This document shows positions 976-28,494 of a stretch of 32,000 nucleotides of DNA, in pieces. The notes under the pieces are model-generated. The model was given only the letters and a program-made list of their open reading frames with translations, did not search any database and was not told the DNA's origin. The position numbers and the translations under genes were made by a program. The stretch is from Erysipelotrichaceae bacterium MTC7. Lineage in GTDB: Bacteria > Bacillota_I > Bacilli_A > Erysipelotrichales > Erysipelotrichaceae. Each line of letters begins with the position of its first letter. Position 1 is the first letter of the stretch. The stretch is taken from positions 30,001 to 62,000 of the forward strand of contig LVZN01000056.1 in the NCBI GenBank assembly GCA_001695645.1, read 5' to 3'.

Positions 976-1027
976 GTTTCTCAATTAAATACAAGTGTTT
1001 TTTGTACAAAGACACAGAGGGGGACAT

Positions 1028-2188: not shown

Positions 2189-2191
2189 CAT

Positions 2192-3511: not shown

Positions 3512-3513
3512 AT

Positions 3514-4524
3514 ATGAAAACATATAATGTTGCGATCCTCGGTGCCACTGGTGCGGTTGGTCAAGAAATGTTAAACGTACTTGAAGAGCGTGATTTCCCA
3601 GTTAACGAATTGCGATTGTTAGCAAGTCGTCGTAGCGTGGGCAAAGAAATGACATTTAAAGGACAAACCTATCAATTGCAAGAAGCAAATAAAGATGCTT
3701 TTACCGGCATGGATATCGTACTTGGAGCAGTTGAAAACGATGTAGCAGAAGCACTACTTCCCTATGCTGTAAAAGCCGGAGCTGTGGTCATAGATAACTC
3801 GAGTGCATTCCGCCTTGATGAAAATGTGCCACTCGTTGTACCTGAAGTAAATCCAGAAGATATTAAAAACCACAACGGTATTATTGCTAACCCAAACTGT
3901 TCAACGATTATTGCACTTGTGGCAATCAACGCACTGCATACATATGCCGGTGTAGAAAGCATTGTTGCAAGTACGTATCAAGCAGTTTCTGGTGCTGGAA
4001 ATCCTGGACAAGCGGAATTGGAAAACCAAGTAAAAGAATTACTGGAAGGAAAAGACGTTACAACTAACGTATTCCCTTACCAAATCGCCTATAACGTCAT
4101 TCCGCAAATTGGCGGCTTTGATGAAAATGGATATACAAGTGAAGAGATGAAAATGCAAAATGAAGGTCGTAAGATTTTACACCACGAAGATTTAAACGTC
4201 ACTTGTACTTGTGTCCGCGTCCCTGTTATGCGCTCACATTCAGAGTCGTTAACATTAACGTTTAACAAAGATATTGATGTTGCCAAAGCAAAAGAACTAT
4301 TGGCAAATGCAAAGGGTGTAAAGTTAGTTGATAACCCAGCAGCAAACGAATATCCAATGCCACTTGATTCAAGCAATCAAGATTTGGTCTATGTTGGACG
4401 CATTCGCAAAGACTTGACACGTGACAAAGCGTTAACGCTATGGTGTTGTGGAGATCAAGTTCGTAAAGGTGCTGCCACAAACGCAGTCCAAATTGCTATT
4501 GAATACATAAAACAAAACGCTTAG
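3514..4524 (+). CDS. asd: aspartate-semialdehyde dehydrogenase
   Basis: NVAILGATGAVGQEM is the NAD(P)-binding motif, IIANPNCSTI contains the active-site Cys, and SGAG and RVPVMRSHSESL are also present. RBS GAGGGAG precedes the start. The gene is tightly coupled to the aspartate kinase gene. Confidence 0.95.
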   Translation: MKTYNVAILGATGAVGQEMLNVLEERDFPVNELRLLASRRSVGKEMTFKGQTYQLQEANKDAFTGMDIVLGAVENDVAEALLPYAVKAGAVVIDNSSAFRLDENVPLVVPEVNPEDIKNHNGIIANPNCSTIIALVAINALHTYAGVESIVASTYQAVSGAGNPGQAELENQVKELLEGKDVTTNVFPYQIAYNVIPQIGGFDENGYTSEEMKMQNEGRKILHHEDLNVTCTCVRVPVMRSHSESLTLTFNKDIDVAKAKELLANAKGVKLVDNPAANEYPMPLDSSNQDLVYVGRIRKDLTRDKALTLWCCGDQVRKGAATNAVQIAIEYIKQNA

Positions 4525-4551: not shown

Positions 4552-6828
4552 TTACTGTTGTTTTTTATGTTTCACATATGTCATGAAACCGGCTGATGTA
4601 ACTAGTAACAATACTATCCAACCATAAACACGCTGACTATCTGCAGTTTCTGGTGGCTGTTTTTCACTTTGTTGATGATCTTGTGAATCTATAGCATCAA
4701 CTACAATTGTATCATCCTCGTTTTCAACCTGTTCAACCTTTTTCCACTGTGCATAAAGTGTAGTCGCACCATCCATTACCAAGGTATCGTTTACTTTGTA
4801 GGATAATCCACTTCCATCTTTTTGTGTATTCCAATGTACAAATTCATAGCCATCTTTACGCAAATCTCCATGTGCTAATACTTGTACATGACTTTGTTTG
4901 GCATATGGGGTATTGATATCAACTGGCACTTCACCTGCAGTATGACCATTACCATCGTACAGTACATGATACAACTGGTCTTCTTGCCAAACAGCGTAAA
5001 GCGTAATGTTTTCCTCCAAACAAGAAATTCGATTTCCTGGCGTATATTCGAAATCACCCAAAGTGTCATTTGCCTGTTTTGACCATCCGACAAACTGATA
5101 TCCGTCTCTAACAATTTGTAGATCTTGCACACCATCTAATACGGTTTTTCCTTGGTTGATACAAGAAATGTAATAGTAGGTGTGAATGCGATTATCTTGT
5201 AATGCATCTGGTTCATAGTATGCATCACCTACACTTGCTCTTAGGGCTTGCAATTGGTAGTTTCCACCATTTGCATCATATTTTACCCAGGACTGTTCAA
5301 TGGAACCAGCATCTGCAATACCAATGCGTTGGTGATTTCTTTGATCAACTTCCAATTGTTGAACCATTGGTGTCACTTCATCTGCTAGACCTTCTGGTTT
5401 AATTGGTAACGTTGGTATAATTTCACTGCTGAGACTTGCTCCAGCAACCTTAGAAGAGTGATTGCTGGTTAGCGTTGCTGGATAGTTTCCTAAGATAGCA
5501 TGTTCTTGCAGATTTGCTGCAACACCATTATCAATCCCAACATTTCCACCAAGATCGTCTAGTGGCGTTGTTTTTTGTCGAATATTGGCAAATGCTGGAT
5601 CACTTGCAACGTTTCCAACGAATAGATTGTTGCGATAGCGACCACCAGAAGTGTTTGTTGCATATCCAGATCCACCAATCGCACCAGCTGCACTTTTTGC
5701 TTGATTGTAAGCAAATGTATTATGCTCAAATGTAACGAGTGCATTTCTGCCTTGGAATAAGCCACCATTTGCATAAATCTGCACGGCTCCTCCTGAATAT
5801 GCATCATTACTTGCACCTTGTGCAACATTTCGATAGAATGTGTTGTTTTTTAGCACAATATTTTCACTCATGTTATCGTTAGTTTGAATAAGAATGGCAC
5901 CACCATCATCACCAGCGACATTATGTGCAAACGTATTGCCTTCAATGATTAAACTAGCTGCATTGACGATATTAAAAACTGCCAGTGCACCACCATCTGC
6001 TAACTTCGCTTTATCACCAGTGACGTTTTTTACCGCTTCATTATCAACAAAGTAATTATCACGAATTTGAATTGTTGCACCAGCGAGCGCTTGATTGATG
6101 CATATTGCACCACCTTCACCACCAAACGATGCATTTCCAACAGCAAGGTTCTTGTTATTTCTAAACAACGAATTCATAATCGTTAAAGTTCCTCTAAAAC
6201 TTGTTGCGGTAATCGCTGCACCTGAATAGCCAGCCATGCTTTGTGAGTTTTCCACAAATGAACACTGTTCAATGGTTACTTGCGCATCTGAAACACCCAA
6301 AAGTACTGCTCCACCATCTTGCAAATGTGTTCTACCAATAAACTCCATTTGTCTAAGCATAATTGGGGTGTTTGTAAGTATGCGAATGGCTTGTTTTTGA
6401 CTAGCCGCTGTAAAGTGTAGATTTTGAAGAATCAGCGGTTTTGCACCTTGCCCACTTATCGTCATCGTGTATTCACCAATTGCAACACCATTTCCTTCAA
6501 CAGTCACTTGTTTATCTCCAGGTTTGCTAATTGAAAAATCCGCATCAACCGTAAAGCTTTTGGCAAGCGTAATAACATCTTGATCAGAAGCATTTTGCAA
6601 TGCTTGTTGTAATTCTTGAACATTTGTAACTTCTATTGATGTTGGACTTTTTACTTGCGTATTATTTGTAAACGTACGCGCAACATCACCATTACTTATC
6701 AAATGACTTGTGATTGTAGTATCCTGCTTTGTAATCTTTGTTTCCTTTGCAAATACGGGTTGTGTTGTCGATATGATAGCTACCATAATCAACAATACAA
6801 CGCTTATTACTTTGATTCTTAGTTTCAT
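4552..6828 (-). CDS. secreted cell-surface protein: beta-helix with Pmp-type GGA[ILV]/FxxN repeats, Listeria-Bacteroides (Flg_new) repeats and a C-terminal sorting-signal-like tail
   Basis: The signal peptide is MKLRIKVISVVLLIMVAIISTTQPVFA|KE. Seven alternating GGA(I/L/V)...FxxN units are present (GGAV..SFVEN, GAAI..LFRNN, GGAI..YFVDN, GGAL..TFAHN, GGAI..TFYRN, GGAV..TFAYN, AGAI..LFVGN). Two or three YDxNGG...GYxFxGW...LYAxW repeats follow. The C-terminus reads PPETAD, then a hydrophobic helix (WIVLLLVTSAGFMTYV), then KHKKQQ. RBS GGAGGAG precedes the start. Confidence 0.85.
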   Translation of the reverse strand: MKLRIKVISVVLLIMVAIISTTQPVFAKETKITKQDTTITSHLISNGDVARTFTNNTQVKSPTSIEVTNVQELQQALQNASDQDVITLAKSFTVDADFSISKPGDKQVTVEGNGVAIGEYTMTISGQGAKPLILQNLHFTAASQKQAIRILTNTPIMLRQMEFIGRTHLQDGGAVLLGVSDAQVTIEQCSFVENSQSMAGYSGAAITATSFRGTLTIMNSLFRNNKNLAVGNASFGGEGGAICINQALAGATIQIRDNYFVDNEAVKNVTGDKAKLADGGALAVFNIVNAASLIIEGNTFAHNVAGDDGGAILIQTNDNMSENIVLKNNTFYRNVAQGASNDAYSGGAVQIYANGGLFQGRNALVTFEHNTFAYNQAKSAAGAIGGSGYATNTSGGRYRNNLFVGNVASDPAFANIRQKTTPLDDLGGNVGIDNGVAANLQEHAILGNYPATLTSNHSSKVAGASLSSEIIPTLPIKPEGLADEVTPMVQQLEVDQRNHQRIGIADAGSIEQSWVKYDANGGNYQLQALRASVGDAYYEPDALQDNRIHTYYYISCINQGKTVLDGVQDLQIVRDGYQFVGWSKQANDTLGDFEYTPGNRISCLEENITLYAVWQEDQLYHVLYDGNGHTAGEVPVDINTPYAKQSHVQVLAHGDLRKDGYEFVHWNTQKDGSGLSYKVNDTLVMDGATTLYAQWKKVEQVENEDDTIVVDAIDSQDHQQSEKQPPETADSQRVYGWIVLLLVTSAGFMTYVKHKKQQ

Positions 6829-13285: not shown

Positions 13286-14893
13286 TTACACTAAGTGTTT
13301 GTTGTTAACTGCAACTTTAATGAATTCCCTAAATAATGGATGTGCTTTGTTTGGACGCGATTTGAATTCTGGGTGATACTGTACCCCCACATGGAATTTA
13401 TTGGATTCAAATTCAACCGCTTCCACAAGTTTGTTATCAGGACTTGTTCCTGTAATGCACATACCATGTGTATTGAAACTCTCACGGTAATCATTGTTAA
13501 ATTCATAACGGTGACGGTGACGTTCACTAATGTCTGCGCTTTGGTATGCTTTTTCTAACATACTTCCTGCTTTGATGTGACAAGGGTATGCACCTAAACG
13601 CATCGTTCCCCCTTTGTTATCAACGTCGACTTGGCTCTCCATCAAATCAATGACATTGTGAGCTCCAGCAGGTGTAAATTCACTAGAGTTTGCATCTGCA
13701 TGTCCAAGTCCATAGCGAGCAAATTCGATGGAAGCGATTTGCATTCCCAAACAGATTCCAAAGTATGGAATATCATTTACTCTGGCATAGTGACAAGCTG
13801 CGATCATTCCTTCAATTCCACGACCGCCAAAACCGCCTGGTAAGATGATTCCGTCCATGCCTTCAAAGTATTTTGAACAGTTTTCATCAGTCAAGGCTTC
13901 ACTGTCGACCCATGTAATTTTTACATCAGCATCGTTTTCGTACCCACCGTGTTTTAACGCTTCAACCACTGACAAGTACGCATCGTGTAATTTTACATAC
14001 TTTCCTACCAGCGCAATGTGAACTTCCTTATTGACGTTTTTAATGCGTTTTACAAGGTTTTTCCACTCACTAACGTCTGGTTTTTTCGTTTTCAAGTGCA
14101 ATTCGCGACATACGATATCAGAAAAGTTTGCCTCTTCTAGCATCAATGGTGCTTCATATAAAACTGGCAACGTTTTGTTTTGAATCACACAGTCTTGTTT
14201 CACATTACAAAACAATGATATTTTTTGTAGGATGTTTGAATCCAAATCTTCATCTGCTCGACAAACAATAATATCTGGAGAAATTCCTAAACTTTGCAGT
14301 TGTTTTACACTGTGTTGGGTTGGTTTACTTTTATGTTCCCCACTACTTTTGATATAAGGAACCAATGTGACGTGAATGAATAGCACATTTTCACGCCCTA
14401 CTTCTAAGCCCACTTGACGAATGGCTTCTAAGAATGGTTGCGATTCAATGTCCCCTGTCGTTCCACCAATTTCAGAAATGACAATATCAGCAGCATCTTC
14501 ATCACCAACAGCATAAATAAAGTCTTTAATCTCTTGTGTGATGTGCGGAATTACTTGGACTGTGTCCCCAAGGTATTCTCCTTTACGCTCTTTATTTAAG
14601 ACGTTCCAGTACACTTTTCCACTGGTTAAGTTAGAAAAGCGGTTCAAGTCTTCGTCAATGAAACGTTCATAGTGCCCTAAGTCTAAGTCGGTTTCTGCTC
14701 CATCATCTGTTACGAAGACTTCTCCATGTTGGTAGGGTGACATCGTTCCACAATCCACATTAATGTATGGATCCATTTTTTGTGCGATAACTTTTAATCC
14801 ACGCTCTTTTAGCATGCGCCCTAAACTTGCTGCGGTAATCCCTTTACCTAATCCACTTACAACTCCACCTGTAACAAATATATACTTTCTCAT
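13286..14893 (-). CDS. pyrG: CTP synthase (glutamine-hydrolysing)
   Basis: [25 protein letters not shown] is the canonical PyrG N-terminus. GICLGMQ contains the GATase Cys, and HRHRYE is also present. The protein is full length at 535 aa. Confidence 0.97.
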
Positions 14894-14904
14894 CTTAACT
14901 CCTT

Positions 14905-15480
14905 CTAACCATACGTTTTTAATATATCTTTCGCAACTTCTTCTTTGGAGATTCTTGCATCCATCGCTTTTTTCTCAATGTAGTGATGTGCTTGCGCCTC
15001 TCCCATATTCAAATATTCCATTAGTGTGTATTTTGCACGACTAATCAATTCCAAATTCTCTACTTTTTCATGCAAACGCAGGTTTTCTTTTTCTGCGTGT
15101 GATAAGCGTTGATGTGTCGATAAACCCATACGCACCGCTTGGGTAAACATACTACGATTGAGCGGTTTTCCAATCACCATCACCCCGTGACGACTTAGTT
15201 TTTGACTGAGCTCATCTACAAGCTCGTTTTTCACCAAGAAAAGAACACCACTGGTTGTTTCTTCTGTGATACGTAACGTTAACTCATGACCAAACTCATC
15301 TGACAATGGAGCGTTGATCAACACCATATCAAATGCTTGCTTTGCAAGTACATCTTTTGCTTCTTTTGCACTTTTGACACTTTCAATTATCTTAATATCA
15401 ATGTTTGATAAAAGCTTACTTAAAGCATCTAGACTTTTATCTAAACTTGAAACGATTAAACAACTCCCCATACAATCCAC
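14905..15480 (-). CDS. ANTAR-domain RNA-binding antiterminator with a pseudo-receiver N-terminal domain
   Basis: The C-terminus [43 protein letters not shown] matches the ANTAR helix pattern after a coiled-coil linker. The N-terminus has a receiver-like fold, but the acidic pocket is replaced ([10 protein letters not shown]) and the phospho-acceptor position reads MVLINAPL (Asn, not Asp). The start is GTG 15480 or ATG 15471. Confidence 0.85.
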
Positions 15481-15488
15481 CTTTCTTC

Positions 15489-16757
15489 CTATACCAGTCT
15501 AAAGTATGGATCCAACTCGAAAGAAGCATCTTGATCTTGTAAATCCACTTCTTCTTTCTTTACGCGAATGAATGTCTCTAGTGTTTTTTCGTTAATATAT
15601 GTCCGGACAAATTGGGACTTTTCCAAATTTTCTAATGCTTCTGCTAAACTCGCAGGTAACATGTCTGGACTTGTTTTATTATCATGTAACTGCTCTTGAT
15701 GTTTCATTCCCTCTACACCAGCAAACAACAACAAAGCAAACGTGATATACGGATTGCATGCGGCATCACTGGAACGCAAGGTAATAAACGAATATTCATC
15801 ATGTTTTTCATCAACACGAATCAATTCACTTTCATTTTCTTTTGACCAGGTAATGTATTTTGGTGCTTTTTCTCGCCCCAAACGCTCATAGGAATTATGA
15901 ATTGGATTCAAGATGGCACTCATCTCGTTGATACGGTTGAGAATACCCGCAATAAAACTGCGTTGTTCCTGTAAATTTACCGCATATTCATCATCAAATA
16001 TATTTCGGTCATTCTTACGCAAGATGACTTTGATTCGCAAGCCACTTCCAGCTTCATTTGCTAAGGGACGCGGTAAAAAACTTGCGTATAAATCGTTAAC
16101 CAGAGCGATACTTTTTACCGCGTTTTTAAACGTGACAAAATTATCAGCACTGGGTAAAGCGTAGTCTTTTTGAAACATAATCACGTTTTGACCAGGCCCT
16201 TTTTCATGATAGGACATCGTCGTCTTTATCCCCATTTCACCTAGTGCCAAACACACATCACGACGGAGGTTTTCACACTTATCAAGTGGCGTCACATCCA
16301 AGTAAGATGCCGTATCGACAGGGATATTGGTTGGTTCTCCACTTTCATCATTTTGAAAGACATAAAATTCACTCTCAATTCCGATGTTTGGCGTATACCC
16401 AAAGGCCTCACATGCTTCCATTGCTTGTTTTAATAAATAGCGACCATCCCCTTCAAAGGGGCGCAAATCCACATGCTTAATATCACAAAAAAAACGAACA
16501 ACTTTCTCATGATTGCTGCGCCATGGCAGTATGGTCATGGTTTCCAAATCTGGAAACAAGAGTAAATCCGTTTTTTTGAAGTTCATAAAACCGTTAACTA
16601 TAGAAGCGTCCAAGTTAACTCCGTATGTGGTTGCCGACTCAAAGTCCTCAGCGTTGATGGAAAGATTTTTTAAGGTTCCAAAAATATCGCAAAAAGCGAG
16701 TCGCACAAATTTTACATGATGGGTTTGGATGTATTGCAAAATTTCTTGTAGCTTCAT
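15489..16757 (-). CDS. type I glutamine synthetase-like protein (422 aa) with substitutions in several catalytic motifs
   Basis: The N-terminus is a beta-grasp (VKFVRLAFCDIFGTLKNLSI) and the C-terminus is a GS catalytic-domain fold (GIESEFYVF, YHEKGPGQNVI, AGSGLR, NSYERL, NESELIRVD, ACNPYI). RBS AAGGAGAG precedes the start. See the findings for the motif substitutions. Confidence 0.85.
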   Translation of the reverse strand: MKLQEILQYIQTHHVKFVRLAFCDIFGTLKNLSINAEDFESATTYGVNLDASIVNGFMNFKKTDLLLFPDLETMTILPWRSNHEKVVRFFCDIKHVDLRPFEGDGRYLLKQAMEACEAFGYTPNIGIESEFYVFQNDESGEPTNIPVDTASYLDVTPLDKCENLRRDVCLALGEMGIKTTMSYHEKGPGQNVIMFQKDYALPSADNFVTFKNAVKSIALVNDLYASFLPRPLANEAGSGLRIKVILRKNDRNIFDDEYAVNLQEQRSFIAGILNRINEMSAILNPIHNSYERLGREKAPKYITWSKENESELIRVDEKHDEYSFITLRSSDAACNPYITFALLLFAGVEGMKHQEQLHDNKTSPDMLPASLAEALENLEKSQFVRTYINEKTLETFIRVKKEEVDLQDQDASFELDPYFRLV

Positions 16758-16790: not shown

Positions 16791-16819
16791 ATTATAGTTT
16801 ACAACTATCCTCGTGTCAA
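16791..16819 (-). promoter_or_regulatory. consensus sigma-A promoter for the GS-like/ANTAR(/pyrG) transcription unit
   Basis: The minus strand reads TTGACA (16819..16814), a 17-nt spacer, then TATAAT (16796..16791). The ATG at 16757 is about 27 nt downstream of the predicted TSS. Confidence 0.6.
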
Positions 16820-16963
16820 TGAGAAGTTTATACTCATACTATTTCTATTCTTACCACATTTTTTTCAAAAGTCAAAATCTAATACAACAAAAATTGAAAC
16901 ACCGTAGAGATTCAACTCACTCGCTATGTATTGCACATATTATAACGTTTTTTCATTTCATTC

Positions 16964-16992
16964 TTGACATATCACTGCGAATTGATTAAACT
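16964..16992 (+). promoter_or_regulatory. sigma-A promoter candidate for glnN
   Basis: TTGACA (16964..16969), a 17-nt spacer, then TAAACT (16987..16992). The predicted TSS is near 16999/17000. Confidence 0.5.
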
Positions 16993-16999
16993 CTATGTA

Positions 17000-17049
17000 A
17001 CAGCAAGGGTGCTGTAGATATATTTTTGTCTACGGCGCTCTTTTTGTTT
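17000..17049 (+). promoter_or_regulatory. glnN leader: intrinsic terminator with a competing upstream hexaloop hairpin (candidate ANTAR-responsive attenuator)
   Basis: Terminator: 17006..17020 (AGGGUGCUGUAGAUA) pairs with 17027..17041 (UGUCUACGGCGCUCU). This gives 15 bp including 4 G-U pairs, with loop UAUUUU, followed by UUUUGUUU. It ends 10 nt before the SD AGGAGGAG. Alternative hairpin: ACAGC-AAGGGU-GCUGU at 17000..17015 sequesters 10 nt of the terminator's left arm. Confidence 0.55.
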
Positions 17050-17065
17050 ATTCAGGAGGAGAAGT

Positions 17066-19165
17066 ATGAGAACTAACGTTACTGAGATTTTTGGATCGAT
17101 GGTTTTCGACGATCGTTGTATGAAGGCAAAACTGCCTAAAGACATCTACAAGAAATACAAAGCGACGATTGAAGAAGGTAAACCACTTGATCCAGAATGT
17201 GCAAACACAATTGCAACAGCAATGAAAGACTGGGCAATTGAAAACGGTGCAACGCACTACACACACTGGTTCCAACCTATGACCGGTATTACTGCCGAAA
17301 AACATGACGCCTTCATCGCACCTAGTGGTGATGGAAGTATCATTATGGAGTTTTCTGGTAAGGAGTTAATCAAGGGTGAACCGGATGCTTCAAGTTTCCC
17401 AAACGGTGGGTTGCGTGATACTTATGAAGCGCGTGGATACACAGGATGGGATCCAACATCATGTGTCTTTATTAAAGAAGGTATCTTATGTATTCCAAGT
17501 GTATTTATGTCATACAATGGTGAATCACTTGATAAAAAGACCCCACTATTAAAAACCCAAGAATTATTAAACCGTCAAGCGTTGCGTATCCTTAAACTTT
17601 TTGGTAAACAAGATGTTAAGCGTGTGAACACAACTGTCGGAGCTGAACAAGAATATTTCTTGATTGATAAAAATCTGTGGGATAAGCGGAAAGACTTAAT
17701 CTATACAGGGCGTACCCTTTACGGTGCACGTCCACCAAAAACACAAGAGCTTGATGACCACTACTTTGGTGTATTAAAACCAAAAGTTGCACGTTTCATG
17801 GATGACTTGAACGTTGAACTTTGGAAGCTTGGTGTACTTGCAAAAACGCAACATAACGAAGTTGCTCCTGCACAACATGAACTTGCGCCAATCTTTACAC
17901 TTACAAACGTGGCAACAGATCAAAACCAATTGACAATGGAAATCATGAAGAAAGTTGCCTTACGTCATGGACTTGTTTGTCTCCTTCACGAAAAACCGTT
18001 TGCTGGTATTAACGGATCAGGAAAACACAACAACTGGTCAATGGCAACAGACCAAGGTGAAAACTTATTGGAACCAGGTGCAACACCAGAAGAAAATGCA
18101 CAATTCCTATTGGTACTTGCAGCCCTAGTTAAAGCCGTTGATGAAAACCAAGATTTATTGCGCATCTCGGTTGCAAGTGCAGGAAACGATCACCGACTTG
18201 GAGCACAAGAAGCACCTCCTGCAATTATTTCAATTTTTACAGGAACGGATTTAGAATCAATCATTGAATGCATTATTGAAGATAAACCACAATGCAGTCA
18301 CAATGCAGGAAAAATCGAAATTGGTGTTGACTCTTTACCAGAATTTAAGAAAGACAATACAGACCGTAACCGAACATCACCGTTTGCCTTTACAGGAAAT
18401 AAATTCGAATTCCGTATGCTTGGTTCACAACTATCGATTTCTTGTCCAAACATCATGCTTAACACAATTGTGGCCCAGTCATTCAAAGAATTTGCAGATC
18501 GCTTAGAAAATGCAACGGACTTGCAAAAAGACTTGCACGATCTTATCAAAGAGACATTCACAAAACACAAACGTATCATCTTTAACGGAAACGGTTATGA
18601 TGAAAGTTGGGTAGTTGAAGCAAAAGCACGTGGTCTGTTAAACCTAAGAACGACATACGAAGCACTTCCACATTACATGGATAAGAAAAACGTTGAACTG
18701 TTCACTTCAAATAACATCTACACAGTCAATGAAATGAAAGCACGTATGGATGTCCTAATTGAAGAATACTCAAAAGCAATTAACATTGAAGCCGAAACAA
18801 TGGTGAACATGTCAAAGAAAAACATCATTCCTTCAGTTTTGAAATACATTAAAGATTTAAGTGAAACAGTTGCGACAAAAAAAGCAATTGCAACGGATCT
18901 TGATTGTACAGTCGAAGAAGCAATGCTTGTAAAAATCAACAAACTAATCACTACCGTATACACAAAAACGGAAGCACTAGCAGATGATATTGTCGCTGCG
19001 AATGGCATTTCAGATATTATTGAAAATGCAACATACTATGGAGAAAGCGTCTTAGCAAAAATGGTTGACCTCCGTGCTGTTGTTGACGAAATTGAACAAA
19101 ACTGTTCAAAAGAATACTGGCCATTCCCTTCTTATGGAGACTTACTTTACTCTGTAGCTGATTAG
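17066..19165 (+). CDS. glnN: glutamine synthetase, type III
   Basis: The protein is 699 aa. The N-terminus FGSMVFDDRCMKAKLPKDIYKKYKATIEEGKPLD, plus GAEQEYFLID, QHNEVAPAQHELAPIF, HEKPFAGINGSGKHNNWS and NRTSPFAFTGNKFEFR, are GSIII hallmarks. RBS AGGAGGAG precedes the start. Confidence 0.95.
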   Translation: MRTNVTEIFGSMVFDDRCMKAKLPKDIYKKYKATIEEGKPLDPECANTIATAMKDWAIENGATHYTHWFQPMTGITAEKHDAFIAPSGDGSIIMEFSGKELIKGEPDASSFPNGGLRDTYEARGYTGWDPTSCVFIKEGILCIPSVFMSYNGESLDKKTPLLKTQELLNRQALRILKLFGKQDVKRVNTTVGAEQEYFLIDKNLWDKRKDLIYTGRTLYGARPPKTQELDDHYFGVLKPKVARFMDDLNVELWKLGVLAKTQHNEVAPAQHELAPIFTLTNVATDQNQLTMEIMKKVALRHGLVCLLHEKPFAGINGSGKHNNWSMATDQGENLLEPGATPEENAQFLLVLAALVKAVDENQDLLRISVASAGNDHRLGAQEAPPAIISIFTGTDLESIIECIIEDKPQCSHNAGKIEIGVDSLPEFKKDNTDRNRTSPFAFTGNKFEFRMLGSQLSISCPNIMLNTIVAQSFKEFADRLENATDLQKDLHDLIKETFTKHKRIIFNGNGYDESWVVEAKARGLLNLRTTYEALPHYMDKKNVELFTSNNIYTVNEMKARMDVLIEEYSKAINIEAETMVNMSKKNIIPSVLKYIKDLSETVATKKAIATDLDCTVEEAMLVKINKLITTVYTKTEALADDIVAANGISDIIENATYYGESVLAKMVDLRAVVDEIEQNCSKEYWPFPSYGDLLYSVAD

Positions 19166-19171
19166 CCAAAG

Positions 19172-19202
19172 AAAAAAACTTACCTAGATGGGTAAGTTTT
19201 TT
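19172..19202. terminator. bidirectional terminator between glnN and the convergent hypothetical gene
   Basis: AAAAAAACTTACC-tagatg-GGTAAGTTTTTT is a hairpin flanked by A and T runs. Confidence 0.75.
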
Positions 19203-19923
19203 ATATGTCGATACTTACAGTCCGTTTAAAGACCAAGTTGTAATCGTTAAAATTAAAGCTCAGTGAGAAGATATAATTACCGCTTGTCACTTGGGATAAA
19301 TCAAACGTGTAATAATCTTTGATTTGTTGGTAATCTCCATCATCCTTGACAGTTTCACTTTTCACAAAACTCAATGGAATGACACCCTTTTGATTTAAGG
19401 TGTAGGAAACCATCGGTGTTCGTGGTTTTTGTTCCTTTTGCACAAAGTACATCGTTTCCATATATAGTATGTTTCCTTCCAGGCGTTGGTTGACTTGGAA
19501 GTTCAACACTTCATCAATGTAACGATACAAACGTTTCTCTAATACGCGACCATTTCCTAAAGTGACTTTTAAAGTGAATTCATTATTTCCAGTCTTTATT
19601 CCACTTTGAAATAACGGAGTTGAGAACACCGCTTGGTTGGTTACATCTTTTAACAAGGTAATATCATGAAAAATCTCAACTTTAGAGATACTTTCGTTTC
19701 CTTGGTTAACCCCCCAATGAAAAGTTAAGTCATTCGCTGAAGTTAACTTTAGTGAAAAGTTAGAAATGTTAGCAGCTTGCTCATTATCATTTCCTCCAAC
19801 ATTTGCATCCGTACTTTTGTTTGGTTCCAAAAATTGGATTAACAAAAATACAATGGAAACCAAAAGAACCGTTGCAAGAATAACAAAGACCTTATTACGT
19901 TTAATAAACTCCATGGACTTCAC
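19201..19923 (-). CDS. hypothetical membrane-anchored protein (N-terminal TM helix, ~200-aa beta-rich ectodomain)
   Basis: A 240-aa ORF with TM helix VFVILATVLLVSIVFLLIQF. I recognise no motif in the remainder. It is bounded by terminators on both sides. Confidence 0.55.
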   Translation of the reverse strand: MKSMEFIKRNKVFVILATVLLVSIVFLLIQFLEPNKSTDANVGGNDNEQAANISNFSLKLTSANDLTFHWGVNQGNESISKVEIFHDITLLKDVTNQAVFSTPLFQSGIKTGNNEFTLKVTLGNGRVLEKRLYRYIDEVLNFQVNQRLEGNILYMETMYFVQKEQKPRTPMVSYTLNQKGVIPLSFVKSETVKDDGDYQQIKDYYTFDLSQVTSGNYIFSLSFNFNDYNLVFKRTVSIDI

Positions 19924-20033: not shown

Positions 20034-20861
20034 TTAGTCAAATGCTGGAATTACTAGATCCCCGTATTGTTTTTCAATAAAAGTTTTAACTTTTTCTGAT
20101 TCTAACGCTTTGATTAACGCTTTAATCTTTTTACTTGATTCATTGCCTTTTTTTACAGCAATGATATTTGCATACTTTAAGGCACCTTCAGAATCTTTTG
20201 TTTCCGCAACAATCAATTTCTTCTCTACTTTGTTAGTTAGTGCATAGTTTCCATTAATCACTGCGTAATCAACATCTGGTAAAGTCGCTGGGATTCCTGC
20301 TGCTTCAACTTCTTTAATTGTTACATTTTTGGGGTTATCGGTAATATCAAGTACGGTTGAATTTAAGTTGTTACTATCTTTGATTTTAATAACCCCTTTT
20401 TCTTGCAACAACAATAACGCACGATATTCATTTGATGGATCGTTTGGAATTGTAATTGTTGCCCCTTCTTTTACATCAGCAACTGAGAAGTCTGCATTTG
20501 GTTTCTTGTTATCTTTTGCATAGATTCCAAGTGGTTCAATGTGGATTTTAGCAACTGATACTAAGTCTGTTCCATTGTCTTTATTGAAACTGTCTAGGTA
20601 TGGTTGGTGTTGGAAATAGTTTGCATCAATTTCGCCATCATCAACCACTGTGTTAGGTAAAATGTAGTCATCAAATACTTTCACATCTAACGTATACCCT
20701 TCTTTTTGTAAATCATCTTTGATTTCTTCTAAAATCTCTGCATGTGGTGTTGCACTTGCAGCAACTGTAATGGTTTCTAAGTCATCACTTGCAGAATCGC
20801 TTGCACCACAACCTGCTAGTACCAACAATCCAACAACTAAACTCGTAATAATTTTTTTCAT
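20034..20861 (-). CDS. metQ: methionine ABC transporter substrate-binding lipoprotein (NlpA/MetQ family)
   Basis: The lipobox is LVLAGC|GAS. NlpA-family body motifs are present (DANYFQHQPYL, IPNDPSNEYRALLLL). It is last in the metN-metI-metQ order. Confidence 0.9.
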   Translation of the reverse strand: MKKIITSLVVGLLVLAGCGASDSASDDLETITVAASATPHAEILEEIKDDLQKEGYTLDVKVFDDYILPNTVVDDGEIDANYFQHQPYLDSFNKDNGTDLVSVAKIHIEPLGIYAKDNKKPNADFSVADVKEGATITIPNDPSNEYRALLLLQEKGVIKIKDSNNLNSTVLDITDNPKNVTIKEVEAAGIPATLPDVDYAVINGNYALTNKVEKKLIVAETKDSEGALKYANIIAVKKGNESSKKIKALIKALESEKVKTFIEKQYGDLVIPAFD

Positions 20862-20887: not shown

Positions 20888-21625
20888 TTAATGTGTAAGT
20901 TTTTTTGCAAAATAATTCGCACTTGATTCAATAATGACAACAATCAACAAGATAATGACCACTGTTGTCCATGTTGCATCAACTTCTTGTGATTGATATC
21001 CGTAACGAATGGCAAAAGCTCCTAAACCTCCACCACCAACTTGTCCAGCCATGGCTGTTAGTCCAAGTGCAGAAACTAACGTCATCGAAATGGAACGAAT
21101 GAGTCCGGGTATACTTTCTCTTAGGTATACTCTAGTTATGATTTGAAAGGGGGAGTCCCCCATTGAGATACTTGCCTCAATCAGCCCAGAATCAACATCT
21201 GCCAAAGCACTTTGAACCTGCCTAGCGAAGAATGGGATGATTCCAAATACCAAAGTGACAATCATTCCTAACGTTCCTGTAGCCGTTCCTACAAGCAATC
21301 TTGATAATCCCATCATTAAGGGTATCAAAATAACAAAAGGTACCGCGCGAAAGAAGTTAATAAACTTATCAAAAATGAAGTATAGTACTTTATTTTCTAA
21401 CAATCCATCCTTGTTGGTAACCGTCACGATGACTCCAACAACCAAACCCAAAACTAGGGCAATACTTCCAGAAATCAGAAGCATCCAAATGGTTTCCCAT
21501 GTTGCTTGGACCAAACCACGAATCATGATTGGATTGTTCATGAATTCCATTGGTAAGAAATTGTTGATTAACTCAATGATCTTGCCAATGATAAATTCAA
21601 CGATATGTGAGATTTGACTTCCCAT
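20888..21625 (-). CDS. metI: methionine ABC transporter permease
   Basis: It is a multi-TM protein with an EAA-like loop (IEASISMGDSPFQIITRVYLRES). Its ATG overlaps the metN stop (TAATG). Confidence 0.9.
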   Translation of the reverse strand: MGSQISHIVEFIIGKIIELINNFLPMEFMNNPIMIRGLVQATWETIWMLLISGSIALVLGLVVGVIVTVTNKDGLLENKVLYFIFDKFINFFRAVPFVILIPLMMGLSRLLVGTATGTLGMIVTLVFGIIPFFARQVQSALADVDSGLIEASISMGDSPFQIITRVYLRESIPGLIRSISMTLVSALGLTAMAGQVGGGGLGAFAIRYGYQSQEVDATWTTVVIILLIVVIIESSANYFAKKLTH

Positions 21626-22659
21626 TAGTTTAGCACCTCAACTTTCACACCTTGTTCTTTAATATAACGAACTGCTGCATTGCGATCAGTTTCACTTCCT
21701 TTTAATTTCACCACCAAGTTTCCAATTGGCGTAGAACTTAAGATTTCAACATTGGCAAAGACAATGTTAAATTCCAAGTTGAAGCGATTGACCAATTCTG
21801 ACATCATCGGTTCATCGGTGTTACTTGAACCGTAAGTTAAACGCAACATGATTTCATCATCCTCTAGTTTCACTAGTGGATTTTCTTCTTCAATCATTTC
21901 ATATATTTCATTAATCGATGTTGTCGTATTAATGAAGTTTTTTGTTGTTTGATTTTGTGGATTGCTAAAGATATCCAAGATATTTCCTTGTTCAACAACC
22001 ACACCAGCTTCCATAATCGCAACCCGATTACAGATTTGTTTCACTACAGCCATCTCATGGGTAATGATGATAATTGTGACATTTAGTTTCTCATTTACTT
22101 GTTTAAGTAATTGAAGAATGGATTGTGTTGTTTGTGGGTCAAGAGCACTTGTTGCTTCATCACAAAGTAAGATACTTGGATCATTTGCCAATGCTCTTGC
22201 AATCGCAACTCTTTGTTTTTGCCCGCCAGACAATTGACTTGGATATGCTTTGGCCTTATCTGCCAGTTCGACAAGTTCTAATAGTTCTTTAACCTTTGCC
22301 TCAATTTCTACTTTGCTTTTTCCACTACCTTTTAATGGATATGCAATGTTTTGTGCAACCGTTCTAGAGCGCATCAAATTAAAGTGTTGAAAGATCATAC
22401 CAATTTTTTTGCGTTCTTCACGTAAACTTTTTGCTGGTAGTTCTAACAAGTTTTTACCGTTCACCCATACTTCTCCGCTTGTTGGTCGTTCCAATAAGTT
22501 CACACAACGAATCAACGTACTTTTTCCAGCACCACTAAATCCAATGACACCAAAGATATCACCAGCTTCTACTTGCAAAGAAACATCTTTTACTGCATGC
22601 ACATCTTGTTCTTTTACTTGAAACGTTTTCGAGATGTGTTTTAAGACAACCTTTTCCAT
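21625..22659 (-). CDS. metN: methionine ABC transporter ATP-binding protein with C-terminal NIL domain
   Basis: Walker A is GFSGAGKST, the signature is LSGGQKQRVAIARAL and Walker B is ILLCDEATSALD. The C-terminal ~100 aa look like a NIL/ACT-like regulatory domain. Confidence 0.95.
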   Translation of the reverse strand: MEKVVLKHISKTFQVKEQDVHAVKDVSLQVEAGDIFGVIGFSGAGKSTLIRCVNLLERPTSGEVWVNGKNLLELPAKSLREERKKIGMIFQHFNLMRSRTVAQNIAYPLKGSGKSKVEIEAKVKELLELVELADKAKAYPSQLSGGQKQRVAIARALANDPSILLCDEATSALDPQTTQSILQLLKQVNEKLNVTIIIITHEMAVVKQICNRVAIMEAGVVVEQGNILDIFSNPQNQTTKNFINTTTSINEIYEMIEEENPLVKLEDDEIMLRLTYGSSNTDEPMMSELVNRFNLEFNIVFANVEILSSTPIGNLVVKLKGSETDRNAAVRYIKEQGVKVEVLN

Positions 22660-22671
22660 ATATCCTCCAAA

Positions 22672-22932
22672 TCATTAAAAAAACATTCATCCATAAGGAC
22701 GAATGTTATCGCGTTACCACCTTAATTCGTTATTGCATCACTACAACAACCTCTTCAAGTTCTATCAAACTCTAGCACGCTAACGGGTGCAACCGGTACA
22801 ATCTAAAGTAAACTCTCAACTGTACTACTCCAAGACCATATTCAAGTTCGACTCGTCATATCCCTTTTCACCAACCGGGACTCTCTATGAAGACTTTTGA
22901 TACTCTACTCTTCTTTTCATCGTATTTGTATT
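22672..22932 (-). ncRNA. T-box riboswitch leader (probable Met/AUG specifier) controlling metNIQ
   Basis: All elements are on the minus strand. The promoter is TTGACA (22967..22962)-17-TAAAAT (22944..22939). Stem I elements are AGAGAG...GGTGAAA. The specifier-loop context is TTGAAT-ATG-G...GGAGTAG, with ATG at 22839..22837. The T-box sequence AATTAAGGTGGTAACGCG lies at 22727..22710. The terminator AACATTCGTCC-ttat-GGATGAATGTT plus TTTTT lies at 22707..22677, just before the metN RBS GGAGGA. Confidence 0.8.
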
Positions 22933-23845: not shown

Positions 23846-25618
23846 CTACAATAATTTTGCCTTTTCTAACAATTCTTCAATGTAGGTACCTTTAATTTTT
23901 TTCATAAAGTGTTTGATCAAATGTTTTTCCACAAATGGTAACTCCATGTCTGCAAGTTTACGTTTATCGGATAAGTAGTAAACTGAATTTGCTAGTTCGC
24001 GGATATCGTAAGCTGAAGCAAAGACTTCAGGAACACCACGTTCTAAATCAAGCAATTGATACACAGCTTCCATTGCCGTACGAACAGAGTATTCTGTTGT
24101 AAATACGGTGTCGCGTTCTGTATCAGCAAAGTTACCAATAAAGGCAAGGTTTGTTGAATGATTTGGCACAACTAATGGACGATCACCAGGTTTGCGAACC
24201 ATGAAATACGATGTAATAAATGGCATATACACAGGGATAGACACACAAGAGTTTGTTGCCATTGCTTCAATTTCATTTTCTGGTACACCTAAGTGATACA
24301 TCAATTCTTCCGCAATTTCTTTACCTGTACACTCTTCAACTGGTTTTTTAATGTAGTTTCCAGGGACTCCTGAATACAATGCGTATACCCAAGCAACACT
24401 TTCATTTTCCTTTTGTTCCTTAAAGTGTGGTTGACGGTGCATTGTAAATGAAAGCATCCAGTTGGAATCTTTTACGGTGATAATTCCTCCAGTTACTACT
24501 TTTCCAGAACGCATTTTACGATGTGTTAAACGTTCTAAGTATGGTTCAATGTCGAAGTTTTCAAAAGTTACTGTAGCGGAAACATACCAACTTTTTTCTG
24601 GCAAGTTATCGCAGAATGCACTTGGATTTCCAAATTCTTTACTTTGTGAAGCAAGATTTTTCCATAGTTTCCAACTTCCACCAAGTTCATGTGTAATTCG
24701 AGCAGGTGTATTGTGATCCCCTTGTGTTGAACTTTCAGTGATGGAACCATTTGTCACAAACACCAAATCGTTTTCACTAAGCACAACTTCTGTTGCCAAT
24801 CCATCTTTGGTCAGTTTTAAGATTTTCGCAGTTTTCTTATGTTCTGTGATATCCACAAGTACGTTATCGACTCTTGCATTCATTTGGAAATCAACACCAT
24901 GAGATTCTAGATAACTTAGAAGTGGTTTAACTAAAGATTCGTATTGGTTATATTTGGTGAATTTTAAAGCTGTAAAATCTGGTAATCCTTTGATATGGTG
25001 AATGAAACGCATAATGTAACGACGCATTTCAATTGCTGAATGCCATTTTTCAAATGCAAACATACTACTCCAATAGATCCAGAAATTTGAATTAAAGAAT
25101 TCATCACCAAAGACATCTTCAATTGTTTTATCTAGCAATTGGTCTTCACTTTTCATAAAGAGTTCAACAATTTCTTTTTGAGCTTGTTTAGATAAGGTAA
25201 ATTGTCCATCGTCTGCTACACGTTGTCCTCTATTTTCAATAATACGACAGTTTGATGAGTTTGGATCATCTTTATCCAACCAGTAGAATTCATCTAAAAC
25301 AGATGCATCATCAACTTCAAGTGAAGGAATGGAACGGAATAAATCCAATAGACATTCAAAGTGATTTTCCATTTCTCGACCACCGCGGACAACAAATCCA
25401 TCATGCGGAATAAACGTTCCATCAAGTGAACCACCATTAATTCCCAACTCTTCATAAATATGAATGTTGCTACCTTTCATTTGTCCATCACGAATCAAGA
25501 ATACAGCAGCAGCCAAACCGGCAAGTCCTGCACCAACAATATGTGCCGACTTATCGTCCACACCTTGTGGTTTTCTTGGTCTAGCAAATGCTTCATAATT
25601 TCCATTAGTGTATTTCAT
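23846..25618 (-). CDS. ohyA: oleate hydratase (MCRA family, FAD-dependent)
   Basis: [45 protein letters not shown] contains the GxGxxG FAD motif. The ~590-aa length and [16 protein letters not shown] are typical of MCRA-family oleate hydratases. Confidence 0.9.
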
Positions 25619-26396: not shown

Positions 26397-27878
26397 TTAT
26401 TTTTTACGTACACTTTCTAATAAACTCAATTTCAAGTCCAATAATTCTTTCGATAAATCAACATAATACTCTTGTGGATATTCAAAACGTAAGATTTCAT
26501 CCCACATCGTTTCTCGACTTGATTTAGCAAACAAACGAATCTCTTCTAAACTTGGGCAATCGTAAACCAATTGTCCATTTTCAATAATTGGGATTAACAA
26601 ACGTTCCACGCGATATGTTCCCTTTTCAATGGTTTTAAATTTCCAAACATCTTGCGGGTGATAAATCACCAAGTCATCATCTTCTGTTACAACTTCATGC
26701 GACAAGGTCATCAAATCAGCAATCGCTTTACCATTTTCTGTACTGTAAATACGATAAAGTTCTTTTTTTCCTGGGTTGGTTAGTTTAATGGCATTATCTG
26801 ATACTTTAATTTTTGGTGTATATGTTCCATCTTCCATTTTGATGGAACTTAATTTATACACACCACCAAAAACTGGAGAACTTTTTGAACAGATCAAATT
26901 CTCTCCAACACCAAATATATCAATTTTTGCATCTTGATCAATAAGCGATTTGATGATGTATTCATCAAACGAGTTCGATGCGATAATCTTCGTATCTTGC
27001 ATGCCTTCGGCATCAAGTTTCTCACGAATCCGTTTTGATAAGTACGCAATATCCCCACTATCAATTCGCACACTTTGTAAGTAATAACCTTGTGGCAATA
27101 AGATTTCTTTATGAACGCGAATTGCATTGAGCAATCCACTGTTTAATGTATCGTATGTGTCTAACAATAATGAAGTTTCTGTTGGAAAGTGTTTTGCATA
27201 TGCAGCAAATGCATCATATTCACTTGGATAGCTTTGAATAAAACTGTGTGCCATCGTTCCCGAAACTGGCATGTGGAACATATGTCCAGCTTTCGTGTTA
27301 CTTGTACCAAATACACCACCGATATAGGCGGCTCTAGCTCCGTAGTTAGCTGCATCAAAGTTGTGTGCACGGCGTGCTCCAAATTCAAGCACACTACGCC
27401 CCTTACTCGCTCTAACAACACGATTGGCTTTTGTTGCAATCAAACTTTGGTGGTTACAGCAAAGCAACAGTGCCGTTTCCACGAGTTGTGCTTCAATAAT
27501 TGGTGCTTCTACTCGAATGATTGGTTCATTTGGAAACACAACAGTTCCTTCTTTCACAGCATATACATTTCCTGTGAAAATAAAATGACGCAAGTAATCT
27601 AAGAACGCTTCATCAAAACGTCCCAGTCCTTGTAGATAAAAAATATCTTCTTCGTTAAAATGCAAGTTTTGAATGTATCCAATCAATTCTTCTAAACCAG
27701 CAAAGATGGCAAATCCACCATCATCTGGATTCTTCCGGTAAAAATAATCAAAAGTTACAACCTGGTTTTGACGTCCTTCACTAAAGTACACTTGTGACAT
27801 GGTCAATTCATAAAAATCCATCACCAACGATAAATTTCTTGGGTCACGTAAATCAAATTTTAAATCATATGTTTTCAT
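26397..27878 (-). CDS. pncB: nicotinate phosphoribosyltransferase
   Basis: LVMDFYELTMSQVYF, LEFGARRAH and GTMAHSFIQSY are NAPRTase family motifs. The protein is 493 aa, and its start is 1 nt after the pncA stop. Confidence 0.9.
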   Translation of the reverse strand: MKTYDLKFDLRDPRNLSLVMDFYELTMSQVYFSEGRQNQVVTFDYFYRKNPDDGGFAIFAGLEELIGYIQNLHFNEEDIFYLQGLGRFDEAFLDYLRHFIFTGNVYAVKEGTVVFPNEPIIRVEAPIIEAQLVETALLLCCNHQSLIATKANRVVRASKGRSVLEFGARRAHNFDAANYGARAAYIGGVFGTSNTKAGHMFHMPVSGTMAHSFIQSYPSEYDAFAAYAKHFPTETSLLLDTYDTLNSGLLNAIRVHKEILLPQGYYLQSVRIDSGDIAYLSKRIREKLDAEGMQDTKIIASNSFDEYIIKSLIDQDAKIDIFGVGENLICSKSSPVFGGVYKLSSIKMEDGTYTPKIKVSDNAIKLTNPGKKELYRIYSTENGKAIADLMTLSHEVVTEDDDLVIYHPQDVWKFKTIEKGTYRVERLLIPIIENGQLVYDCPSLEEIRLFAKSSRETMWDEILRFEYPQEYYVDLSKELLDLKLSLLESVRKK

Positions 27879-27879
27879 C

Positions 27880-28494
27880 TTAATTCTCCATTATAACAAC
27901 TTGGATTCCATTACGAATCATTAAATCACAAGCGATTTGATTTTCTGTATCGCGATCATGCACACCAGGTATATCAAAAGTTTCAATCATATTCACTGGT
28001 ACAATGACACGCTTTAAATTCATATTTGCTTCATTGAAAAACGTTTGTAAGCTTAATGCAAAATGTAAAATGCAAATATCGCTACAACAGCCGACAATGA
28101 CAAAATCATCGTAATTAGCAAGTAGTTCAGGCAAACGATCTTGAAACTCTTTTGCTATAAATGTATTGGTACTATTCTTGTGAATGATGTGATTTGCATA
28201 CATCTCCAATTCTTTTATTACTTTACTTTCATCGGTATTTTCAACGCAATGAATCGGATAACTTTCAAATTCGCGAGCATCTAAGTTATGCGAGTCACAA
28301 ACAAAGCTACAGTCTTTTGCTTTCTTTAACAAGTCAGCGATTGGTTGACTTATATCCATAATGCCAGAATCACTCAATGCTCCCTCTTTGATAAATCCGT
28401 TAATCATATCGACGACAAACACATATGGTCGATGCAATTCAAACAAGGTTGTCTTTGCTAACGTCTCCATTGTCACTAGTTTCAAATTTGCCAT
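27880..28494 (-). CDS. pncA: isochorismatase-family hydrolase, probable nicotinamidase
   Basis: It has an isochorismatase fold (FVVDMINGF, VIVGCCSDICILHFAL with the catalytic Cys). It is translationally coupled to pncB, so the nicotinamidase call rests on context. Confidence 0.75.
   Translation of the reverse strand: MANLKLVTMETLAKTTLFELHRPYVFVVDMINGFIKEGALSDSGIMDISQPIADLLKKAKDCSFVCDSHNLDAREFESYPIHCVENTDESKVIKELEMYANHIIHKNSTNTFIAKEFQDRLPELLANYDDFVIVGCCSDICILHFALSLQTFFNEANMNLKRVIVPVNMIETFDIPGVHDRDTENQIACDLMIRNGIQVVIMEN

Follow-up and report, generated by a model that had tools for sequence, protein, structure and literature searches.

What does a bacterium gain by keeping a glutamine synthetase (GS) whose catalytic residues have been replaced, and why should its gene stand directly before that of an antiterminator? 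The question is raised by a 32,000-nucleotide stretch of Erysipelotrichaceae bacterium MTC7 (contig LVZN01000056.1, positions 30,001 to 62,000 of the forward strand), which in its entirety we call the window and to which coordinates refer. On the minus strand, a gene for a GS-I-like protein of 422 amino acids (15489..16757) is followed by one for an ANTAR antiterminator with a pseudo-receiver domain (14905..15471, 188 amino acids), and glnN, encoding a type III GS (GSIII) of 699 amino acids, diverges from the pair on the plus strand (17066..19165). From comparative sequence analysis, we propose, with a probability of roughly 0.55, that the dead GS is a metabolite-sensing partner of the ANTAR protein and that both control transcriptional read-through into glnN.

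The GS-like gene starts with an ATG that has an AAGGAG ribosome-binding site 8 nt upstream, and its product carries both domains of the family in Pfam (Gln-synt_N, E = 1e-22; Gln-synt_C, E = 2e-73). Its score against the NCBIfam GlnA equivalog TIGR00653 is 298.6 bits, below the cutoff of 429.15. The identical database protein is listed as "hypothetical protein A4S06_04330" of Erysipelotrichaceae bacterium MTC7, and the nearest relative, from Breznakia blatticola, is 86% identical. To read the active-site residues, we used HMMER alignments to the M. mazei and Bacillus subtilis enzymes and two MAFFT alignments; catalytic residues are given in B. subtilis GS numbering, and residues of the allosteric pocket described below (F17 and so on) in the numbering of the query itself. 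Three of the six metal ligands are replaced (E196V, H245R, and E333T) and three are kept (E132, E134, and E189). Both phosphate-binding arginines are gone (R316E and R331F), and further replacements affect the flap glutamate (E304K) and positions N240A, N247K, S249I, and H187Y. G241, R298, R321, R335, and the Asp of the FDGSS motif are retained. Three alignments agree on these losses. An earlier note on this DNA had recognized a GS-I paralogue with several catalytic motifs replaced by inspecting the sequence by eye; a proper alignment listing the metal and ATP ligand columns bears out each of its motif readings, so the ligand losses are real and the by-eye register was right.

These are not private changes of one genome. 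At the replaced catalytic positions, the 108 intact sister sequences show 100% conservation, and the change is found in all nine members of the query's clade (Breznakia/Erysipelotrichaceae), more than chance would produce. The clade comprises nine protein clusters at 51 to 86% identity with a full-length open reading frame (ORF) in each. With metal ligands, arginines, and the flap glutamate lost in 9/9 members, the protein very probably does not function as a GS, and the earlier expectation that normal glutamine synthesis is unlikely looks sound. That note had also listed a nucleotide among the possible ligands; the loss of R316, R331, N247, and S249 makes nucleotide binding unlikely.

Might the protein instead still catalyze some altered reaction, for example as a one-metal or gamma-glutamyl-X ligase, its gene lying beside that of ANTAR merely as part of a shared nitrogen-regulated operon? 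Some GS-like families do act on other substrates, E132, E134, and E189 are kept, and there is a weak NCBIfam match to gamma-glutamylputrescine synthetase (204.8 against a cutoff of 650). We nevertheless consider this very unlikely: three metal ligands, two phosphate arginines, and N247 and S249 of the ATP site are gone, the residue losses differ by lineage in a way that does not suggest one new chemistry, and the nitrogen attenuator of the operon has been lost in the query's clade (see below).

The gene is also not decaying. Among 151 positions conserved in at least 95% of the sister sequences, 98 are retained in 9/9 clade members and 18 have switched, about 12 of the latter within catalytic motifs. 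Compared with the B. blatticola orthologue, the ratio of nonsynonymous to synonymous substitution rates (dN/dS) is 0.067 for the GS-like gene, 0.052 for the ANTAR gene, 0.035 for GSIII, and 0.018 for PyrG, at synonymous distances of about 1.1 to 2.3, near saturation. The AlphaFold2 (AF2) monomer model has a mean predicted local distance difference test score (pLDDT) of 85.7 and a predicted template-modeling score (pTM) of 0.90, and it superimposes on M. mazei GS with a TM-score of 0.93 and on B. subtilis GS and other GSI-alpha structures with about 0.9. A decaying pseudogene is ruled out by the dN/dS values and the conservation pattern, and these together with the confident fold identify the gene as a maintained, folded pseudoenzyme under purifying selection. 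The same evidence bears on the idea that it is a functionless relic, kept for the architecture of the operon because it carries the promoter of the ANTAR gene and pyrG or couples their translation. The short gaps to ANTAR and pyrG would suit such a relic, as would a GSIII that supplies GS activity, yet it is scarcely credible for an ORF that is full length in nine clusters, evolves under a constraint like that of the ANTAR gene, keeps 98 of the 151 sister-invariant positions clade-wide, and has a confidently predicted fold.

To see how general the association with ANTAR is, we surveyed co-occurrence in both directions. A species scan, with one genome per species, gave 80 loci among the matches listed, at 41 to 49% identity, from Clostridia, Erysipelotrichales, spirochaetes, and Endomicrobia; the matches listed lie outside the query's own clade, which was covered by exact-protein look-ups. 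Within that degenerate clade, the GS-like gene is followed by ANTAR in 7/7 distinct loci, with GSIII divergent nearby and pyrG next after ANTAR in five of the seven. Among the matches listed, an ANTAR ORF lies directly 3′ of GS in 78/80 loci. In one of the other two, the contig ends at the gene, and only L077 truly lacks ANTAR; there, a degenerate GS-like gene (4947-6212) is followed by two tandem genes for 148-amino-acid membrane proteins. In the reverse search of metagenome contigs with the ANTAR alignment, 65 loci could be evaluated, and 15 further contigs did not extend far enough. A GS-like gene stands directly 5′ in 62 of the 65, leaving three true exceptions. In these three (L137, L153, and L174), the ANTAR gene has as neighbors glutamate synthase (GOGAT) genes, a PurC-like gene, and NfeD/flotillin genes.

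The intact relatives (∼49% identity; 437 to 441 amino acids; annotated "glutamine synthetase family protein") are mostly from Clostridia and share the GS-ANTAR layout. One locus (L006) has the order GSIII, GOGAT genes, GS-I, ANTAR, which matches Clo1313_2038..2030 of C. thermocellum. Pairing with ANTAR thus defines the whole GSI-alpha subfamily, of the clostridial glnA-nitR type, most members of which are catalytically intact. The earlier note had proposed surveying degenerate GS genes for co-occurrence with ANTAR; the linkage is strong, and it is not special to the degenerate clade. The comparative evidence makes the status as a pseudoenzyme and the partnership with ANTAR well supported at the level of genes; contact between the two proteins is what we propose.

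The ANTAR protein itself appears to require such a partner. We aligned 90 family ANTAR proteins to CheY and inspected the phosphorylation pocket. The protein of the window has Ser, Ser, Asn, and Val at the equivalents of D12, D13, D57, and T87. Across the family, the D12 equivalent is Ser, Thr, Cys, Ala, Arg, or Gly and never Asp (0/90), D13 is Asp in only 3/90, D57 is Asn in 74/90, and T87 is Val in 69/90; the K109 equivalent is retained in 84/90. Such a receiver should be incapable of being phosphorylated, and the antiterminator is predicted to depend on a protein partner. Input from a histidine kinase was considered and ruled out, given the loss of the acidic pocket and the lack of a kinase gene in the 32-kb window, where we found no PII gene either. 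For the class of ANTAR proteins with pseudo-receivers, control by modulator proteins has been suggested by Ramesh et al., in the way that AmiC controls AmiR (PMC3369931). The AmiC-AmiR-like logic put forward in the earlier note therefore appears reasonable by analogy, with a GS-like gene locked to an ANTAR gene whose receiver lacks a phospho-acceptor pocket.

If the GS-like protein is a sensor, which ligand does it bind? In M. mazei GlnA1, the structurally defined 2-oxoglutarate pocket between subunits consists of F24, R26, R87, R172, R173, and S189 (PMC11957540), and in M. thermolithotrophicus GS it consists of F18, R20, R88, R174, R175, and S191, with a small residue at position 34 (PMC10799026). 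In our alignment, the query has F17, R19, R80, R165, R166, and S182 at the equivalent positions and S33 at the blocker site. The stacking Phe, the Arg-Arg pair (R165 and R166), the Ser (S182), and a small residue (Ser, Ala, or Thr) at the blocker site are present in 88/88 family sequences, and the Arg of the PWR loop (R80) is present in 87/88. The position of M. mazei R26 (query R19) is Arg in 79/88 and Lys in 6 more. All 19 catalytically degenerate sequences retain the pocket, bar one Arg-to-Lys change, as do 51 of 53 genes in a metagenome sample. B. subtilis GS, which is insensitive to 2-oxoglutarate, has Y20, E36, and T83 at three discriminating positions, and in the insensitive M. shengliensis GS several pocket residues are substituted (PMC10799026). 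The conserved function of the protein would then be to sense a ligand in the pocket between subunits, for which 2-oxoglutarate is the leading candidate, and glutamine or glutamate may contribute at the remnant active site.

The alternative that the dead GS senses glutamine or glutamate through this remnant site, and that the 2-oxoglutarate pocket is kept only for oligomer stability, deserves weighing. E134, G241, R298, and R335 contact the amino-acid substrate (the Mg and glutamate residues are listed in PMC10799026). They are near-invariant, and the dead proteins of the query's clade keep them too: E134, R298, and R335 occur in 80/80 loci among the matches listed and G241 in 79/80. R245 and K304 could moreover stand in for the charges of the metals. 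In the query, however, the glutamate site has lost H245, E304, and N240, and the glutamine lock-in known from B. subtilis and M. shengliensis GS requires R62 (PMC10799026), a position that is Asn in the query and Asn, Asp, or Gly across the family; the flap Glu is Lys in the query and variable in the family. The three discriminating 2-oxoglutarate positions, in turn, are permissive in 87 to 88 of the 88 sequences. We therefore regard glutamine or glutamate as the main ligand as unlikely. Where the earlier note named glutamine, glutamate, or a nucleotide and drew a parallel to the feedback-inhibited GS of Bacillus, the nucleotide and the Bacillus-like glutamine logic are not well supported (the analogy is weak with R62 changed to Asn and the flap Glu to Lys), and 2-oxoglutarate appears to be the better candidate.

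The output of the sensor may also lie elsewhere: the dead GS could act on GSIII or on a PII or Amt protein, or it could be a scaffold or chaperone for ANTAR that senses nothing. GS is known to bind many regulators, e.g., GlnK, sP26, TnrA, and GlnR (PMC10651883, PMC11800386), and many family loci have GSIII in synteny. In many others, GSIII is absent from the 5-kb flanks, whereas ANTAR adjoins the gene in all but two of the loci among the matches listed, and the invariance of the metabolite pocket argues for sensing. We find such a target distinctly unlikely and retain the ANTAR protein as the candidate recipient of the signal.

The catalytic losses recur elsewhere in the subfamily. In an alignment derived from 93 genomic loci (the 80 scanned loci among the matches listed, the window, and 12 fetched earlier), at least 1 of 11 core catalytic residues is replaced in 22 loci, mostly three to five. 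In a neighbor-joining tree, these 22 degenerate loci form about ten separate lineages that sit beside intact sisters and differ in their replacement patterns. An independent metagenome sample gave a similar picture: 19 of 53 complete genes are degenerate, 18 of them with at least three changes and with at least nine distinct patterns. Catalytic residues have thus been lost repeatedly, in about 20 to 35% of the loci of the subfamily. Beyond the query's clade, degenerate lineages are represented by L010, L047, L050, L051, L053, L054/L059, L063, L077, L082, and L091 and by a subset of L101 to L169, with loss sets such as E132A/E333K/R321T or E134S/E189I. They include ANTAR-linked GS-I genes on human-gut and bioreactor metagenome contigs, in which the losses are apparently independent.

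This pattern invites a broader reading, in which the whole GSI-alpha subfamily, found across Clostridia, Erysipelotrichia, spirochaetes, and gut metagenomes, would be the 2-oxoglutarate receptor of an orphan pseudo-receiver ANTAR protein, in a nitrogen-status pathway that acts at the level of transcription termination and needs neither PII nor a histidine kinase. Catalysis would have been discarded independently at least 10 times because sensing, not catalysis, is what selection maintains, and the gene in the window would be one pure receptor among several. We hold this view tentatively, as something short of an even bet. It would imply that many database "glutamine synthetases," those of gut metagenomes included, may be non-enzymes.

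We then asked what RNA the ANTAR protein might act on. The leader of glnN carries a promoter-like site (TTGACA-17-TAAACT; 16964..16992, plus strand) that places the transcript start just 5′ of a hairpin, ACAGC[AAGGGU]GCUGU (17000..17015, plus strand; loop in brackets). ANTAR recognition calls for a hexaloop with A at position 1 and G at position 4 on a stem of at least 3 bp (PMC3369931); the glnN hairpin has both loop nucleotides and a sufficient stem and, in addition, overlaps a terminator, making it a candidate ANTAR site. This intrinsic terminator (17005..17052, plus strand) has a 16-bp stem and a U-tract, with a folding energy of −27.5 kcal/mol (z = −7.1). Its 5′ arm is made of the loop and the 3′ arm of the hairpin, and the two structures are therefore mutually exclusive. 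The 16-nt hairpin sequence occurs once per related locus, always 5′ of glnN, and the hairpin with its overlapping terminator is conserved 5′ of glnN in every related locus.

For a statistical comparison, we searched for leaders by fixing only the loop and the C-G pair that closes it and by requiring that the 3′ side be complementary to a terminator farther downstream, leaving the 5′ arm unconstrained. The strict pattern gave 72 sites, compared with 4 in a reversed-sequence control. At the 58 unique sites, chosen without regard to the 5′ arm, 92.1% of stem cells are paired (68.1% after shuffling), and the covariation score is 0.689 (0.256 after shuffling); none of 500 shuffles reached the pairing or the covariation value. 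Control stems slid along the sequence gave 23 to 50% pairing. Compensatory changes are found at four of the five stem pairs, and the loops follow the consensus AARGGY. Rfam yielded no family for the leader, either at the gathering threshold across the whole window or in E-value mode in the intergenic region, where matches were at chance level only. The stretch between the divergent promoters (16863-16900, plus strand) weakly matches the CRISPR direct-repeat family RF01320 (25.7 bits, compared with a threshold of 37; E = 0.005), which is probably a chance match, as it is present in a single copy with no array. It is plausible, from structure and conservation, that the leader hairpin is the target of the ANTAR protein.

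In sister genomes, GS-I/GOGAT operons and amtB have the same hairpin-terminator element in front of them, and so does pyrG in two cases (L042, about position 3169, plus strand; L084, about 3322, minus strand). In the degenerate clade, the GS-like/ANTAR operon lacks a hexaloop-terminator leader. In the window, the operon has a sigma-70 promoter with a 12/12 match to the consensus (TTGACA-17-TATAAT; 16791..16819, minus strand) and a leader of only ∼30 nt without an attenuator. This is the shared consensus promoter reported earlier. Loss of the attenuator fits a gene pair that has turned into a constitutively expressed regulator.

The 8-nt gap previously given between the GS-like and ANTAR genes counts to a GTG at 15480, 9 nt 5′ of the ATG, which is the ANTAR start in a mechanical ORF list (191 amino acids). 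We favor the ATG at 15471, which is preceded by AAAGGTGG and fits the 188-amino-acid orthologue gene calls, on the strength of those calls and the ribosome-binding site; the genes are adjacent as described, with a gap of 17 nt. The gene for CTP synthase, pyrG (13286..14893, minus strand), begins 11 nt past the ANTAR stop codon, and no terminator was found between the two, so the operon probably comprises three genes, GS-like, ANTAR, and pyrG. In many other family loci, too, this glutamine-dependent CTP synthase gene lies directly 3′ of ANTAR. The occurrences of pyrG suggest that it belongs, or is coupled, to the nitrogen regulon. On the other strand, GSIII can be aligned over its full length with the B. 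fragilis GlnN structure 3o6x and has all motifs intact. It is the complete type III GS that had been placed about 300 bp away; the distance is 308 bp. We presume that it is both the working enzyme and the regulated target.

From these elements, we assemble the following scheme. The GS-like/ANTAR(/pyrG) operon would be transcribed from its strong, attenuator-free promoter and expressed constitutively. An oligomer of the GS-like protein may read nitrogen status through the inter-subunit 2-oxoglutarate pocket, to judge from residue conservation, and the remnant amino-acid site (E134, R298, R335, and G241) may add to sensing. Depending on the ligand, a change in conformation or assembly would capture or release the pseudo-receiver ANTAR dimer, in the manner of AmiC-AmiR and NasS-NasT. 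Free or activated ANTAR would bind the AARGGY hexaloop at the 5′ end of glnN and block the terminator, so that GSIII could be made. The expected direction is that high 2-oxoglutarate, signaling nitrogen limitation, leads to read-through.

Several observations weigh against this proposal. Four of the pocket residues (R22, R169, R170, and S186 in B. subtilis numbering) occur in the Bacillus enzyme as well, insensitive to 2-oxoglutarate though it is, which leaves the three discriminating positions and their invariance to carry the case for this ligand. The leader has one hexaloop, while characterized ANTAR dimers recognize two; no second hexaloop hairpin was seen in 17 inspected leaders, in which a promoter 5 to 20 nt upstream leaves no room for one on the 5′ side. 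In three members of the degenerate clade, the hairpin stem is only 3 to 4 bp long. Tight operon linkage could reflect co-regulation only. Finally, deletion of the type I GS in C. thermocellum is reported to "deregulate nitrogen metabolism," in the words of the title of a 2017 study by Rydzak (cited in PMC9888227); we count this in favor of the proposal, but the phenotype could be purely metabolic.

Other features of the window are more remote from this subject. Next to glnN, a gene at 19201-19923 (minus strand) encodes a 240-amino-acid protein with an N-terminal hydrophobic segment and no Pfam match; counterparts of 237 to 238 amino acids, also with no Pfam match, adjoin GSIII likewise in Breznakia and related loci (L001-L003, L093, and L094). 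A T-box leader (22692-22929, minus strand; 124 bits, above the gathering score) precedes a metNIQ-type methionine ABC transporter operon (ORFs 21625-22659, 20888-21625, and 20034-20861). The window also contains a hom-lysC-asd aspartate-pathway cluster (995-4524, plus strand), an MCRA-family protein of the oleate hydratase type (23846-25618, minus strand), and a pair of genes for nicotinate phosphoribosyltransferase and a nicotinamidase-like isochorismatase (26397-28494, minus strand), none of them obviously nitrogen regulatory.

To our knowledge, little is understood of how Clostridia and their relatives among the gut anaerobes sense nitrogen status. ANTAR proteins of the NitR type have been on record since the 1990s, and we know of no input signal for them; pseudo-receiver ANTAR proteins form a large class, and we are not aware of their partners. 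Should the neighboring GS be the sensor, this class would acquire both a signal and a receptor, and 2-oxoglutarate sensing by GS would extend from the activation of archaeal enzymes to gene control in bacteria. The repeated loss of catalysis with the allosteric pocket kept would then be a natural experiment in which the moonlighting role of GS can be told apart from the enzymatic one. The proposal would also explain the disturbance of nitrogen regulation upon type I GS deletion in C. thermocellum and would be relevant to the engineering of that organism.

Parts of this picture are already known: nitrogen control by ANTAR proteins and the glnA-nitR cluster (PMC6316151, PMC3369931, PMC4676874), the Bacillus GS sensor, and the methanogen GS activated by 2-oxoglutarate. 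In the searchable literature, we found no dead GS retained as an ANTAR partner, no near-obligate reciprocal GS-ANTAR linkage, no recurrent catalytic loss with a kept 2-oxoglutarate pocket, and no single-hexaloop leader. ANTAR, pseudoenzymes, and clostridia all go unmentioned in a 2025 review of GS regulation.

The closest known arrangement is the clostridial glnA-nitR cluster of C. saccharobutylicum NCP262 and C. thermocellum, in which a GSI-alpha gene is followed on the same strand by a REC-ANTAR gene near other nitrogen genes, terminator-type leaders precede nitrogen-assimilation genes, and GS/GOGAT genes are controlled by antitermination. For C. saccharobutylicum, PMC6316151 cites NitR-type ANTAR control of these genes; in C. 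thermocellum, the cluster Clo1313_2030-2038 holds the type I-alpha GS Clo1313_2031 and the REC-ANTAR protein Clo1313_2030, with GOGAT and GSIII nearby (PMC4676874, PMC9888227). The GS proteins there are treated as working enzymes, whereas that of the window lacks catalytic residues, and the operon of the window has lost its own attenuator and become fused to pyrG. For glnA-nitR, we found no description of a sensing role of GS or of GS-NitR contact in the searchable literature.

As a protein, the GS-like product is most similar in sequence and structure to archaeal GSI-alpha enzymes (M. mazei GlnA1, 8s59; M. thermolithotrophicus, 8ooq), whose pocket and stacking Phe it keeps; there, 2-oxoglutarate switches catalysis on, whereas the output proposed here is the control of an RNA-binding protein. 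With the feedback-inhibited B. subtilis GS and its partners TnrA and GlnR (PMC6316151; 4s0r, 7tf9), it would share the role of a GSI-alpha nitrogen sensor that contacts a gene regulator. The Bacillus enzyme is active, holds glutamine with R62 and the E304 flap, and contacts partners that are MerR-type DNA binders; the protein of the window has neither R62 nor E304, and its candidate partner binds RNA. Vertebrate lengsin (2j9i; a weak match, E = 1e-4) likewise retains the GS-I fold with active-site residues lost, but it is a lens structural protein of unrelated lineage and role, with no link to gene regulation.

In logic, the nearest parallels are AmiC-AmiR of P. aeruginosa and NasS-NasT of Paracoccus, in which a small-molecule-binding partner protein controls the antiterminator and a hairpin competes with the leader terminator (PMC3369931, PMC3369936, PMC3795266). 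The window shares with them an ANTAR receiver that cannot be phosphorylated, an adjacent candidate sensor gene, and a hairpin opposed to a terminator. It differs in that the candidate partner has the fold of a dodecameric enzyme, GS, rather than that of a periplasmic binding protein, in that the leader has a single hexaloop, and in that we infer the complex. The locus is thus best described as a putative partner-controlled ANTAR antiterminator with a GS-derived sensor, a finding with family-wide implications in which the mechanism beyond conservation is our proposal.

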